Part shown: positions 15,160 to 24,811 of the stretch, one piece after another
Layout: each line of letters starts with the position of its first letter
Numbering within the stretch: the stretch's first letter is position 1
Source of the DNA: Eledone cirrhosa
Taxonomy: Eukaryota
Assembly (NCBI GenBank): GCA_964016885.1
Contig: OZ024750.1
Location: forward strand, 43,152,001-43,216,000
DNA: 64,000 bases
Reading direction: 5' to 3'
The notes under the pieces: model-generated
The model's input: only the letters and a program-made list of their open reading frames with translations
The model's database searches: none
What the model was told of the DNA's origin: nothing
Program-made: the position numbers and the translations under genes

Positions 15160-17062
15160 ATGTTAAACGCAGCGAACGAAAATAGTGGTGGGAGGACAGC
15201 GGTAAGAGTTGTAAGCTCGCACGCTTTAGTCCTCCCTTCCTTCCCAACTAACGTCATAGAGAAGGAAGGAAAAATGAAAATAAAAACGGACGAATCTGCG
15301 GAGAAAAAATTAAATGACGAAAACATAAATCTGGACTTGGATTCCAACAACGAAAAAAAAAAAATTTGAAAAATTGCATGACAATACTAATAACACAAAC
15401 AAAGACACAACAAACAAAAAAATAACAGTTGAAAATAACATCATATCAGAAAACAAAGCAGACGACAAGATTTCATTTGCACAGAAAACAAAGAAATCTT
15501 TGACTTATATAGCGGAAAACATTTCAGATGTGGTACGAAGGATCACGGACGCAAAACAATACATAAGTGAAGGTGAGAATGGTATTTTATTGGTAAAAAT
15601 GCCTCAAGAATTCACGAAAGACATTGAAAGCCGAACGGTCAAGTTTCGGACCATCAACAACAGTACAAAAAAACCTGAACAGCCTTCTCAAGCAGATATC
15701 AAAACAGTACTCACAGAAGTACTGAATGAAACAACTTTCATAAGAAAAGACAGACTGTATGGAAGCCTAGCAATTATCATGAAGAACGAATCGGCGGCAA
15801 AAAAATGTGCTTTGTCACCGATTCGTTCGAAAAATTTCACCTTTTATCCATCTTATATGGGAAAAAAAACTCAACGCATATGGCTGGATGCAATGATGCC
15901 AGATGTGGACTACTGCTGGCTCATAGCTGGCTTCATCGATCCAGTGAATGACAACGTGATTTCCATTGGGAAAACCACAGGCAATGCGTTCAGTGGAACA
16001 GGTATAGAGCTGGTAGTACAAATGAAGCCTGAACGCATCGCCCAAAGACCCGACAGAATCCTATTAGAGGACCACGGGTATATAAACATTAGCGTGGAGG
16101 GGAGAAGGCCGTCCTGCCATATCTGTGCAGGCAGAGGGCACCTGAAAGCCGCTTGTCCCCAACTCAACAAAAAGAAAACCCTGCTACCAACACCAGCTCC
16201 ACCACCACCACCACAACAGATAAACAAACAACAAAACTCAGTCCCACCCAACCCGTCCCTCAGTAACACCACAACACCACCACAACACAAACAGTCACAA
16301 CACATTACCCCAAAACAAAATACAGGCCCACCCAACCTCTCACTCAATAAAACAACACAACCACCGCAGACACAACACACAACACAGTCTAACATAGTGA
16401 CATCCATCTCCCCCACAAAGAAAACCAACACGGAAACATTACCAGTAAACATACCTCTTCCCTCCAACACTGAAGATAACCCAACGAATTCGGAGGAAGA
16501 AACGGAGTCCTTCAGACAGATTAAAAGGAAAAAAAGAAAACATGTGCAAAACACACAAGGACAAACAACCCCCACCCAAATCGCAACACAATCTAACAAA
16601 ACAGAAAACACCCCTCCAGCAACAAACAAAACCAAACCTGCCCCTCCCCTCTTCGAAACACTCACACCATCGGAAAAAAAGACATTACACTATACTTACA
16701 TCAACAGAAACAATAATAAATTAAATGAACTCATATACAATAATCCTTCGGTACAAACCGAAGGTGTAAACTTTGTTTCGTCAGAAAACCACCCACATTT
16801 AAAACTAATAAAAATCCCAATGAACCTCTACCAAAAACTAAAAAAGGATTTTAAGGAGGACGTAGGACCACCCTCTGTCAAACCCATAAACCGCGTCCTA
16901 CTAAAAAGCTTTCCCCCTCCCCTTCCCCTCCCCAACACAACTCCAAACACCCCAACCCCACCACACACTGACGACCCCACACCACCACAAGACACCCCTT
17001 CACCCAACACCCCCGACCCCATGGAAGTCGTGCAACCCGAACCCCGGGAAGCGGAAAGGTAG
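15160..17062 (+). CDS. ORF1 gag-like protein, copy 2 (frameshift in A12 run at 15353-15364; main frame 15374-17062)
   Basis: Same CCHC knuckle; near-identical to copy 1. Confidence 0.8.
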
Positions 17063-17095
17063 GTCTCTACACTCTCCTTTGGCTCTGCCGCCCAC

Positions 17096-20000
17096 ATGGA
17101 TGTGTTAAGAGTAGGATGTTTGAATGCACGTGGCCTGGGCTCAACTTGGAAGCAAGCAAAGCTTCTAAATGACCTCAGGTCATGTAGTATAAATGTAATG
17201 GTTATCTGTGAGACTCGAATCAGCGTCATGCGGCAGCTGGCCCCCACCTTCGATGACTTTGAGGTGCATGCATCTCTCTGTCAACCTGGAGGTGGGGGTG
17301 GGGTTGTCGTGCTGCTGCAAAAACACCTGGGTCTTGCCGTACAGGTTGTGCACTCGGACCCGGAGGGTCGTTTGTTGGTGCTAGACGTTGGCAGTAGTGA
17401 AAGTGCGGCCTTGAGACTGGTCGTCGTCTACTCCCCTTTCGGAGCTGAACGGCCCGACTTCTTCCAGCGTTTGGAGACTTTTCTGGGAACGTCGCGTTCC
17501 CTGCTTCTAGCGGGGGATTGGAATGACATCCTAGATGCACGTTGGGACTATGCAGGAGCATGTCCTAATAGAGTTACTCGACCGTTTTAACGGCCGTTAA
17601 CTCGACCGTTTTAGGGGTTACTCGACCGTTTTAGGGGTTACTCGACCGTTTTAACTTGGTCGATAGATATCGACTAGATTTTCCAACTGTGCCTACCTGG
17701 ACTTGGAGAAACCACAGTGGTCAATCTAGATCGTACTTAGATAGATTCTTAGTTAGAAGTAAGGATAGGGACATATTAAGCTGTCCAGAAATGCGCACGG
17801 TTGGCTACACAGATCACAAATTAGTGACCTGCGTGGTCAATCTCGAGAAAACACATAGACAGGGTCCCGGTTACTGGAAACTTCATTTGTCTTTACCGGC
17901 AAAAGAGACTTACAGAAACCGGATTAGCAGATTAGTTAAGGAGAGGTTGACGGGTGCAATCGTCAACAACCGATGGTGGGCATCTCTCAAAAGAGAGATT
18001 AGAACAGAATCAATAAGTTATAGCAAGATGTTAGCTGCCAATAGGAATAGAAACGAGAAAGAATTAACAGGTAAATTAGAAGAGGCAATCAAGAGCGAAG
18101 ATGTGGCCAGAGTGCTGGCATCGAGGACGGCCTTGAACCAGTTTTTCGATGCAAAGCATGAAGGCTGCGTCATTCGAAGTAAAATACGTGCTCTAGGTAA
18201 TGAGGGGGCCAAAGCCGTTGGATGGGCCCGCGTGACAGAAGCTAAAAGTGGAAATCGATCCACCATCCGGTCGTTGCAAGACGAAGATGGACGAGTGATC
18301 CGGGAGCCTAAGCAGATGTGCGAGGCCTTTCAAAAGCACTTTGCCCGATTGTTCGGGGGAGGCGAGGGTCCGGGCCGGGGCGTGGATTTCGGTCCATACC
18401 TCGACGGCCTGCCGCGTCTCTCGAACAAAGAGGCAGAGTCCTGCGAGGGACCAATCTCGGCTGATGAGATCAGAGATGCGCTGAGCCAATGCAGCAGACG
18501 CAAATCTCCAGGTCTCGATGGTATACCTTACGAACTTTATTTAGCAATGCCGGTCTTCTTCTCCGAACTCCTCGAAGCGGTCTACTGCAATTGGCAGCAG
18601 AACGGGAGAATTCCTTGTTCTGTAGCCAAGGGCGTAGTCACGCTGGTGAGGAAGGACGAGAACAAGGGGGATAGTATAAATAATTTTCGGCCCATAACCC
18701 TGCTAAACACAGAGTTAAAGATTTTGGCCAAGGTGTTAGCAAAGAGGTTGGCGCTTGTCGTGGGTGGCCTGGTGGGAGATGCGCAGACATGTGCTATCCC
18801 ATCCAGGTCCATTCACGATAACCTCCACCTCATGCGATACATCATAGAGAGGGTTGGCAACAAACCCGGCTTCGGTGGGGCCCTGATCAACTTGGATCAG
18901 TCTAAGGCCTTCGATAGGGTCGACCATGGTTACCTGGATGCGGTGCTAGCGGCGGCTGGGTTCGGTCCTGTTTTCAGAGGCTGGATCACTGCCCTACATA
19001 GCAACCACATCTGTTCTAGGACCAAGGTGAACGGCTACCTTTCGAAGCCGTTCGAAATCACACGATCCATTCGACAGGGGTGCCCTCTCTCCTCCCTTCT
19101 GTACGTATTGACTCTCGAGCCTTTACTGAGGAAGTTGGAGTTGTTGCAGGGTATCCCCCTGGAACCAGGATTGAGCAAAGCGGTGTCGGCCTACGCCGAT
19201 GACGTAACAGTAATGGTATCGACCGACTCGGAGATCGAGGCGATCGGTACCTTACTGGAGGAGTACGAAAGGTTGTCAGGAGCGAAACTGAACCGGGAAA
19301 AATCCATCGGGCTGCAACTCGGAACGTGGAGAGGCAGACCGATGCCTCCTGACGGTGTCGTCGGACACTGGACGGAGGGCCCGGTAAAGTTGCTTGGGGT
19401 CTGGTTTGGACCGGACCTCCAGGTGGAAAAGAACTGGAACGAGGTTACGAACAAGGTGTTTGCACTAACCCAGAAATGGGCCAAGTGTAAGCTGTCCCTA
19501 AAAGGCCGGGCGGAGGTGGCGAACATTTACATAGCGTCCGTCACTTACTACCGCCTGACTGTCGTGCCTTGCCCTAAGGAAACACTCACCACCATGGAAC
19601 GCATGCTCTTCCAATTTCTTTGGAAGAAGCGTCCTCCTATGGTGAGAAGATCCATCTGCTGCCAACAACCTTCGAAAGGAGGGCTGGGGATGCCGTGGTT
19701 GATGATGCGTAGGCACGCATTAAGGCTACGGCACCTACAGGTATTCCTCACTGGTCAACCGGTGTGGGCTCCGTTCGTGAAACGAGCCTTTCCGAGACTC
19801 GTCTCACTCACCGAGCTACAGTCCTGGGTCAAGCAAAGTTCCGGAAAACTGGGAGACTGGCACACTGAGTGTGCTCAGGCGCTCAGGGCTCTCTGGCAAG
19901 CGGGCCGGGCCATCGGTGGAGAATCCACCTCATCATTCTATAGAGGGCTGGTGGCTAGCAGGGGCGATGACACCCTTGGAGAGTCGCTGGACATGGAAGA

Positions 20001-20279
20001 AGACGAACTGGCCAGCCTGTTCGGTAGGACTTTCGGCCCAGGACCAATGGACAACTTCCAGAAGTCACTGGCCTGGCAGTGCTACCGAGGGGCTCTACCC
20101 GTTCGAGAGAGGCTCTACAGACACGGGCGCCCGGGCAGGGATCCCTCAAAAAAGATTTGCCCTAGATGCGTGCGTCACGAAGAAACCGTAGCGCACGCAT
20201 TGGTGCAATGTCCGGGCGTGGCTGATCTGTGGGGCTACGCCGAACAACTGCTGTCGCGGGTGGCGCCGATTAAATTGAC
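17096..20279 (+). pseudogene. ORF2 (APE-RT-zinc finger), copy 2; split at 17573-17655 and truncated at the C-terminus
   Basis: ATG start, CLNARGL, GDWN, TDHK, YADD. The frame from 17656 is uninterrupted and runs into foreign sequence after ...APIKLT. Confidence 0.9.
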
Positions 20280-20503
20280 AGCACGGACACTCTATCTCAA
20301 AATTATTTTTGAAAAGCATTTAGAAATGCGCAACCGGTAAAAACTTAAAAACTTAAAACCACAACTGAATACTAACCCATACAATCACTAATACTCTTTT
20401 ATTCCTAATTAAACCATTTTTTAACTGTGAACAATTTGTCAGCATTTTCTATTCCGTTTACCAATATATAATAACTTGTGTGTTACACCTCTATTCTTTT
20501 AAC
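20280..20503 (+). mobile_element. Penelope-like pLTR/retrozyme-like fragment, family B, carrying a variant hammerhead motif
   Basis: 20340-20503 matches 24538-24733; 20282-20340 resembles 23479-23536. Ends in (TA)n. Confidence 0.7.
20306..20343 (+). ncRNA. Minimal type I hammerhead ribozyme, U3-A8 variant, with GAAA mutated to GCAA
   Basis: TTT-TTGAAAA-GCATT taga AATGC-GCAA-CCGG-TA-AAA. Confidence 0.55.
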
Positions 20504-20519
20504 TATATATATATATATA

Positions 20520-21522
<1,003 letters not shown>

Positions 21523-23334: not shown

Positions 23335-23613
23335 GAAAGTGAGGTTTTTTTTACAAAATGAAAAATAACCGAGGTCTACTACACGAGTGAAAGTATAAAG
23401 AAAAAGAGATGAAATCGAAAATACAACTGGAGTCTTATTTAAAAAAAATATATATATATATTTATTTGGTTCCTTTACCACAGACCCTCCATCTCAACTC
23501 ACCTTTTGAAAAGCAGAAGAACTGCGAAACCGGTAAAGGAACCGAATAAATATATATATTTAAAAAAAAAAAAAAATAAGACTCCAGTTGCATTTTCGAT
23601 TTTATCTCTTTTT

Positions 23614-23620: not shown

Positions 23621-23642
<22 letters not shown>

Positions 23643-23649
<7 letters not shown>

Positions 23650-24073
23650 AGATCAAAAGATGGTTAAAGGAGTTCCATATATTTTATTATGCGCATTTCA
23701 AAAACAAACATCATCAAGCAATAATATTTGTGTTTTCATCAGATAAAACAGGAGAACATGATATGAAGGCTAAAAAAACACTTGTTGATAGTGCAGTTTT
23801 AAATCAACATATCATGATATGTTGATTTAAAACTGCACTATCAACAAGTGTTTTTTTAGCCTTCATATCATGTTCTCCTGTTTTATCTGATGAAAACACA
23901 AATATTATTGCTTGATGATGTTTGTTTTTGAAATGCGCATAATAAAATATATGGAACTCCTTTAACCATCTTTTGATCTTTTATTATGCATACTCCAGTC
24001 CCACAAACTGTAGAGTGCTTCTTATCCGATATCTGCATTGCTTTATTGCACTACAATAAAACTCACCTCCTAC
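23643..24073 (+). mobile_element. Family A hammerhead hairpin element, copy 2 (spacer-less 344-bp palindrome 23643-23986 plus tail)
   Basis: Centre ATCA|TGAT at 23814/23815; arms essentially perfect. Confidence 0.9.
23881..23947 (+). ncRNA. Minimal type I hammerhead ribozyme (mirror copy at 23682-23748 on minus strand)
   Basis: TTTTAT CTGATGA ... GAAA TGCGCA TA ATAAAA. Confidence 0.82.
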
Positions 24074-24108: not shown

Positions 24109-24336
24109 ATTGTAACGTCAAACCCGTTGGTTCACCAAAGTAAGCTCCCGTAGTCTCCAGTATTTGGGGGTTGTACTAAGCAGAGTGTAATGTTAATAAG
24201 TATGACGAAGTGTTAAATTTTCATTAAGTTTATTCAGGTATGACGCGCGTTTCGCGCTTGATCAACTCAAGGTTCTATTTCTCTCGATCGGGTCTGACTC
24301 TGGAATCAAAAGCTCATCAGACTCCTGTTAGCTTAA

Positions 24337-24338
<2 letters not shown>
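24107..24338 (-). mobile_element. Hammerhead-bearing short element, family F (no inverted arm)
   Basis: Unique segment between two (TA)n tracts that contains a hammerhead core on the minus strand. Confidence 0.65.
24235..24327 (-). ncRNA. Type I hammerhead ribozyme with large stem II insertion
   Basis: Minus strand: CAGGAGT-CTGATGA-GC...GC-GAAA-CGCGCG-TC-ATACCTG. Confidence 0.72.
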
Positions 24339-24419
<81 letters not shown>

Positions 24420-24423
<4 letters not shown>

Positions 24424-24729
24424 TAAACGGAATAGAAAATGCTGACAAATTGTTCACAGTTGAAAAATGGTTTAATTAGGAATAAAAGAGTATTAGTAAT
24501 TGTATGGGTTAGTATTCAGTTGTGGTTTTAAGTTTTTAAAACTTAAAAACTTAAAAACTTAAAAACTTAAAAACTTAAAAACTTAAAACCACAACTGAAT
24601 ACTAACCCATACAATTACTAATACTCTTTTATTCCTAATTAAACCATTTTTCAACTGTGAACAATTTGTCACCATTTTCTATTCCGTTTACCAATATATA
24701 ATAACTTGTGTGTTACACCTCTATTCTTT

Positions 24730-24733
<4 letters not shown>
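24420..24733 (+). mobile_element. Family B asymmetric hairpin element with (ACTTAAAA)x6 at the turnaround
   Basis: 24420-24537 is the reverse complement of about 24577-24694; tail of about 40 bp; (TA)n on both sides. Confidence 0.85.

Positions 24734-24811
<78 letters not shown>

Follow-up and report, generated by a model that had tools for sequence, protein, structure and literature searches.

The hairpin located 24.5 kb into the window (the whole 64,000-nucleotide stretch of Eledone cirrhosa DNA analyzed in this study) is best interpreted, with a probability of roughly 70%, as a truncated Penelope-like insertion into (TA)n, the template 5' end of which was made by the predicted hammerhead ribozyme of the element; this ribozyme is likely active in vivo but accounts for less than 1% of the inserted arms. 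The preliminary description had drawn in vivo activity of the variant ribozyme from this single hairpin. The activity is supported by other copies of the same family, in which U6 or rRNA is fused to the first base after the predicted cut, and not by the hairpin itself. All positions relative to the ribozyme are counted from this predicted cut, +1 being the first base after it.

Family B, to which the hairpin belongs, is the 3' end of an EN+ Penelope-like retroelement (PLE) with a reverse transcriptase (RT) and a GIY-YIG domain. A 784-aa frame in the long copy L082 contains the RT (RVT_1; E = 4e-7) followed by a C-terminal GIY-YIG domain (E = 2e-6), and the CX2-5CxxC linker of the Neptune clade was recognized by eye in the translation. 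The (TA)n flanks of the family B copies correspond to the microsatellite targeting of that clade. The 3.0-Gb genome contains 6,626 occurrences of a family B 24-mer, and the pLTR copies have a 30- to 40-bp tail at one end; 48 of 101 arms are tailed, with one tail per short hairpin pair. In the accessible parts of PMC8557442 and PMC3846280, Neptune-type EN+ PLEs are described as having an RT plus a C-terminal GIY-YIG with a Cys linker, pLTRs, a pLTR hammerhead, an inverted 5' copy with a palindromic junction, a 30- to 40-bp tail on one arm, and microsatellite targeting; Penelope elements are known for their inverted 5' copies, for a tail on one side, and for targeting (TA)n. The architecture of family B shows no difference from these descriptions, and genomic evidence of cutting is added here. 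A reading of the family as a non-LTR retrozyme or a satellite was dropped, because family B ends coding copies and occurs as dispersed singles and hairpins, with no noncoding tandem arrays.

The 24.5-kb copy is a truncated inverted insertion of family B with (TA)n on both sides (Table 1). From position 24538, AAAACTT is followed by five AAAAACTT units, AAAACCAC, the body, the tail, and (TA)n. Tandem Repeats Finder reports a period of 8 with 6.4 copies at 24538-24588, and the stutter of six repeat units in the tailed arm, as given in the preliminary description, is present. The outermost unit contains four A residues, matching the predicted cleavage product, and the inner units all contain five. 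The inverted arms (24414-24539 and 24575-24700) are 99% complementary. The earlier claim that the hairpin starts exactly at the predicted cut holds insofar as AAAACTT is found at 24538; the word "exactly" has to be softened, since the AA at 24538-39 is common to both arms (TT/AA microhomology), which leaves the junction ambiguous by 2 nt, and the 8-nt periodicity allows the start to be read in the +9 register as well. With two of the four A residues shared between the arms and a periodic repeat, the start cannot be established from this locus alone. Unstuttered versions of this junction are found in L199, L201, and L208. Elsewhere in the window, two tandem LINE copies (ORF1 and ORF2, approximately 5.88 kb apart) occupy 9015-20277, the second of which is cut in ORF2 and joined to family B at approximately 20278, and a 36-bp C/A-rich satellite (approximately 776 copies) with extreme strand skew occupies 35573-64000.

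Table 1. Features of the family B hairpin, related hammerheads, and chimeric junctions (positions refer to the window; L numbers are loci elsewhere in the genome)
Feature	Position or locus	Strand	Basis or remark
Family B copy retaining its tail and an intact ribozyme	20278..20503	+	5' end joined to truncated LINE ORF2
Predicted minimal type-I hammerhead, family B, cut after A20339	20306..20342	+	By eye; motif scan; energies
Family A hairpin, internal control	20514..20874		ATCAACAT x4.8 at 20679-20716; centre upstream of intact hammerhead
Family C hammerhead, CCTT TTGAAAA GCAG..CTGC GAAA CCGG TA^AAGG	23501..23539	+	Motif scan; U6 fused at the family C cut in L240, L235
(TA)n target, left flank	24339..24419		Repeat annotation
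Inverted tail-less arm, family B (Penelope-like pLTR 3' part)	24420..24539	-	Ends in TTAA of one ACTTAAAA unit
Stuttered start of tailed arm, AAAACTT + 5 x AAAAACTT + AAAAC	24538..24588	+	Sequence reading; Tandem Repeats Finder
Body of tailed arm	24589..24700	+	98% identity to 20338-20521
33-nt Penelope "tail", one arm only	24701..24733	+	Sequence reading; family matches end at query position 186 or 221
(TA)n target, right flank	24734..24809		Repeat annotation
U6 at family B +1	L189, L190, L262	sense	Junction scan of 153 arms
18S at family B +1	L073, L125, L207, L215	sense	Junction scan of 153 arms
28S at family B +1	L195, L202	sense	Junction scan of 153 arms
U6-first loci, families B, B', C, and D	B L189, L190; B' L245; C L240, L235; D L158, L229		NUH-triplet junctions
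U6-first loci, families E, F, G, and I	E L236; F L252; G L231, L243; I L234		NUH-triplet junctions

The ribozyme is predicted from the 20.3-kb copy, which reads TTT (20306-08), TTGAAAA (20309-15), GCAT, ttagaa, ATGC, GCAA (20330-33), CCGG, T, and A (20339), the cut being followed by AAAACTTAAAAACTTAAAACC. The predicted core is U3 U4 G5 A6 A7 A8 A9 with G12 C13 A14; stem I (UUU/AAA) consists of three A-U pairs, stem II (GCAU/AUGC) of 4 bp, and stem III, the palindrome ACCGGU, of 6 bp only as a dimer. The type-I core (C3-G8 or U3-A8, together with G5, A6, A9, G12, A14, A15, U16, and H17) is present in family B in the U3-A8 form, a covariant described for Schistosoma PLE hammerheads in the available text of PMC4209133. 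The consensus A13, as given in the accessible part of PMC3088659, is absent in family B and replaced by C13; families B and B' read GCAA where families C, D, F, G, H, and J read GAAA. According to the same text of PMC4209133, minimal PLE hammerheads share type I, a short stem I, a palindromic stem III, and G10.1-C11.1 with family B, whereas family B additionally has C13 for A13 and a stem I of just 3 bp. The C13 variant may already have been published elsewhere.

The computed energy of the family B monomer fold is unfavorable (+6.5 kcal/mol) compared with that of a competing hairpin (-3.8 kcal/mol), and the palindrome dimer is computed at -8.3 kcal/mol. Rfam gave no hammerhead match at the gathering score in the window, and the family B motif is a by-eye call; on the junction loci, Rfam at E <= 1 returned mostly spurious miRNA matches from hairpins, plus U6. 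Families A, D, F, G, H, and J escaped a strict hammerhead motif scan and were recognized by eye. Other Penelope-type hairpins or fragments containing hammerheads lie in the window at 29.4-29.7 kb, 24110-24338, and 35.1-35.3 kb, and comprise a family G member whose core is canonical, a minus-strand member of another family, and a third copy of family A.

The 5' ends of family B were collected from the first 100 listed of the 6,626 places of the 24-mer, a sample that is unbiased upstream of the anchor and yielded 101 arms. Ends beyond about -200 are unreliable in this histogram because of internal repeats and (CA)n, and a DNA similarity search, which is limited to the top 40 copies and favors full matches, was left out of it. 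The preliminary description had proposed a peak of 5' ends after GGTA. No dominant peak is found there: none of the 101 arms ends at +1, one ends downstream of it, 2 end at -1 to -10, and 43 end at -61 to -90 (19 at -73 and 6 at -75), with the uncut ribozyme kept in 100 of the 101. The main hairpin turn of family B is a GATC palindrome approximately 75 nt upstream of the cut. The dominant -73/-75 end (e.g., L037, L305, and L306) is also found in single copies directly after (TA)n, with the CTAATCAG motif preceding it, and could mark the start of transcription, a splice acceptor, or a strong stop.

A peak at +1 in family B is nevertheless real but small, amounting to a 2- to 3-fold local excess. 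Counts were obtained with fixed search patterns, and the rows of rare ends were classified by eye. In the cut unit, defined as all 61 arms in the genome whose match to the reference ends within the T-run at the cut, minus 5 point or deletion variants, 36 arms (32 loci) end at exactly +1, and 7, 5, 2, and 6 arms end at +2 to +5. The next repeat unit, which has the identical sequence, served as the control; among the matches listed (100 of 102, with 28 variant or ambiguous rows dropped), 21 arms end at the position equivalent to +1 and 12, 12, 10, and 17 at the following four. Comparison of 4T with 0-3T ends (36 versus 20 arms for the cut unit and 21 versus 51 for the next unit) gives a Fisher p of 8e-5, or conservatively 0.002 when loci are counted and five control hairpins probably hidden by the filter are added. 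Upstream of the cut, 7, 10, 11, 4, 8, 2, 7, and 11 arms end at -1 to -8 under a stricter three-letter filter (among the matches listed, 100 of 119), and the corrected rate is approximately 15 arms per position versus approximately 43 at +1. The total number of junctions counts against the +1 signal, as it is similar in the second unit and the cut unit (72 versus 56 arms). Including 5 stuttered arms, approximately 41 of approximately 6,600 family B arms end at +1 (0.6-0.7%, about one copy in 150).

Among other families, family C shows a weaker excess (approximately 16, 13, 9, 8, 9, and 2 arms from +1 to -5, among the matches listed, 100 of 434), and nearly all of the first 100 listed copies of family J keep the ribozyme. 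Family J hairpins with their turn at the predicted cut or adjacent to it (L336, L338, and similar loci) were also seen in a sample biased by the query. The contigs of four sequencing runs contain no informative joints or end peaks and are evidence neither way.

These counts bear on the earlier statement that the template of the 24.5-kb copy was the self-cleaved 3' product. The single hairpin does not show this, although an origin of this copy from ribozyme-cut RNA is the reading we consider probable. It is unlikely that the ribozyme cuts in vivo while this particular hairpin is an ordinary truncation at TTAA microhomology with a coincidental 4-A start. Many of the 129 short hairpins, of which 50 are listed, do turn at TTAA in either unit, the second unit also yields 21-26 4T ends, and the 2-nt ambiguity of the 24.5-kb junction is compatible with such a truncation; however, the ratio in the second unit leads to a background expectation of only about 8-10 of the 36 +1 ends, and the contrast between the 4-A outermost unit and every 5-A inner unit also speaks for a cut template.

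The stutter is probably slippage at the junction. Genome-wide, 41 arms have at least three units; of these, 27 read through the cut, 5 stop at a terminal 4-A unit, and 9 stop at other points of the repeat; the 24.5-kb copy has the longest pure array among them. Stuttering is found in 5 of the 41 arms ending at +1 compared with 27 of approximately 6,500 read-through arms, a difference of about 30-fold. Because other junctions, including that of family A in the window, also stutter, the stutter reports junction formation and not cleavage. An unstuttered sister of the family A hairpin lies at 23637-23992, and a longer mosaic stutter of about ten units was seen at the hairpin junction of L331. Later replication slippage or an assembly error, independent of insertion, is an improbable source of the repeat units: the genome is rich in microsatellites and the 27 read-through arms also have 3-4 units, but the enrichment of expansions in +1-ending arms and the 9 stuttered arms ending elsewhere in the repeat argue against it.

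Foreign RNA joined to family B was sought in 153 arms that diverge from the reference in the interval from -9 to +20, a set enriched for +1 ends (38 of 153). Nine loci have U6 or rRNA joined in sense at +1 (Table 1), and one (L261) has it at -1; among the 153 arms, no independent U6 or rRNA locus was found at other positions, the rest being partner arms or a 3-nt deletion variant (L262). The identity of the rRNA is based on the rDNA unit annotated by Rfam. In addition, single-copy host sequence is joined at +1 or +2 in L197, and L073 has a long foreign piece on its tail-less arm. Four family B +1 ends (L188, L192, L194, and L198) are fused to pieces from within the element's own ORF and are candidate self-ligated or circularized RNA products.

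A search started from U6 was blind to the position in the element. Among the matches listed (100 of 105 U6 3' ends), 33 belong to a tandem gene array and many nonarray copies join SINE-like repeats, while at least 12 loci, from eight families and counting those of a further search, join predicted cuts, i.e., sequence that elsewhere follows a hammerhead NUH triplet; approximately 10 further partners have no family assignment. Nine of the 12 assignments are firm and three are tentative (L245 within 1 nt; L236 and L234 each from one diverged context). Both family B loci in this search are at +1, for which the chance is approximately 4e-5 against the 0.6% background. Five terminal T residues are found in 11 of the 12 U6 copies (one L158 arm has three, then CT), compared with mostly seven in the array genes. 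A U6 3' end with 4-6 T residues in sense to the element, as in RtcB-type joints, is what is observed, and L240 and L262 match RF00026 above the gathering score. A possible counterexample is L239, in which a possible U6 junction lies upstream and an intact ribozyme approximately 200 nt downstream. The tandem array consists of at least 33 U6 gene copies with approximately 1.8-kb spacing at C19:31.78-31.84 Mb. Among the matches listed, about 20 U6 copies are fused to nearly one position of a SINE-like 3' repeat, which points to one more fixed 5' end that may be a cleavage site.

A search from one 18S site gave a similar picture: 18 of 24 matches continue as rRNA, and six arms (five loci) break at approximately 1519-1522, all five breaks joining predicted cuts (families B, D, D, H, and J). 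A further locus, L280, adds family G. At a 28S site, family B is joined at +1 in L195, and the other partner, L324, has no family assignment. Taken together, the 12 U6 loci and the five 18S breaks lie at the predicted cuts of up to ten Penelope-type families. The 18S rRNA itself (L270, 5873-8732) is approximately 2.86 kb with large expansions, in an rDNA unit of approximately 19.6 kb.

Because these chimeras sit at +1, the family B ribozyme likely cuts in vivo; as judged from the sequence, cleavage by a variant with U3-A8, C13, and a 3-bp stem I is very probable. Ends could also pile up near +1 with no ribozyme cleavage if the RT stalled at the folded or dimerized motif or if a protein nuclease made the cut, and the variant C13 core, the weak stem I, and a palindrome able to form a 6-bp duplex ending at -2 are in keeping with this. 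We regard it as the least probable of the alternatives, since the +1 junctions recur across families whose stems vary widely (3-5 bp in stem I; stem III long or palindromic), and stalling would follow the stem edge (+4 to +6, or -1), whereas the junctions follow the NUH triplet each time. Since less than 1% of family B arms start at the cut, cleavage is not how most templates are made; in vivo it is likely a minor side path.

The following sequence of events would account for the structures. Two transcripts may pair via the ACCGGU palindrome and be cut after GUA, leaving a 5'-OH, and this end would sometimes be ligated, probably by RtcB, to RNAs with a cyclic phosphate before reverse transcription. 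Both target strands would then prime, one at the tail start and one at an internal start, and the two cDNA 3' ends would join by TT/AA microhomology. An RT that slips back one 8-nt unit near the template end would give 5-A inner units and a 4-A outermost unit; in the 24.5-kb copy, a cDNA ending at +1, its TT pairing with AA, would yield the observed junction.

For the chimeras, RNA ligation is somewhat favored over template jumping because the much more common -75 end lacks U6 and rRNA partners (0 of 23 contexts, and the -75 end is absent from the U6-first and 18S-first lists as well). R2-type RTs are capable of end-to-end template jumping, and an RT that leaves the real cut 5' end and continues on the 3' end of another RNA would need no ligation. 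Such jumping would fit the A microhomologies, which count against ligation in 4 of 7 rRNA junctions (4 nt in L125, 2 nt in L195, and 1 nt in L073 and L215, compared with 0 nt in L202 and L207 and one extra A in L261). It is the less likely source of the chimeras, however, given the partner-free -73/-75 end, which is far more common, and the identical foreign junction on both arms in L125, L189, and L197. Ligation by RtcB is described in PMC6789731, in the part available, for U6/LINE-1 chimeras, which need a cyclic phosphate and a 5'-OH and in which the U6 3' end with approximately five T residues is joined in sense to retroelement RNA and then retrotransposed, as is likely here. Those L1 junctions are scattered, whereas the Penelope junctions are fixed at the ribozyme cut and also include rRNA partners (the recurrent 18S break and the 28S site).

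The anole Poseidon element, as presented in the accessible parts of PMC11167929, behaves similarly in vitro: the tail is delimited by two RT starts, extension occurs on both target strands, the uncut RNA is the main template, and the ribozyme is protein assisted. Two RT start sites with extension of both strands fit the one-tail hairpins and L073. Cleavage is dispensable in vitro in the anole element, and the same parts of that paper report no RNA-seq reads at the cut, both of which count against the preferred explanation; the Eledone cirrhosa chimeras, in contrast, record such ends. In the available texts, in vivo evidence for minimal PLE hammerheads is stated to be lacking (PMC4209133), the function of hammerheads in EN+ PLEs is called unclear (PMC8557442; PMC6765202 on dimers), and whether and why minimal animal Penelope hammerheads cut in cells is stated as open (PMC4209133, PMC8557442, and PMC11167929). 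A literature search in the main texts of mostly open-access papers found no report of U6-Penelope ribozyme chimeras, and the accessible parts of PMC13247085 and 10.64898/2026.07.22.740005 add nothing on this point. The element, the hairpin, the tail, and the minimal hammerhead are already known; the present analysis adds rRNA as a partner, with a break that recurs, the C13 variant, and an estimate of the fraction of templates that are cut.

A broader generalization is held only tentatively, at a little under even odds. Penelope hammerheads, even with a doubly altered core (U3-A8 and C13) and a 3-bp stem I, may cut in the germ line, and RtcB may ligate their 5'-OH products to any cyclic-phosphate RNA; the insertions would then archive ribozyme activity and recurrent rRNA breaks (18S at approximately 1520 and 28S near the 3' end), and the same ends might drive telomerase-like repeat addition by the Penelope RT. 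Cleavage appears to serve as a side path, or else to destroy or circularize transcripts, and the chimeras point to RtcB acting on Penelope RNA, a step required by the circular-RNA model. The chimeras also pin down where variants rejected by motif searches are cut, and host RNAs fused at the predicted bond provide an in vivo read-out from DNA alone that is applicable to any genome.
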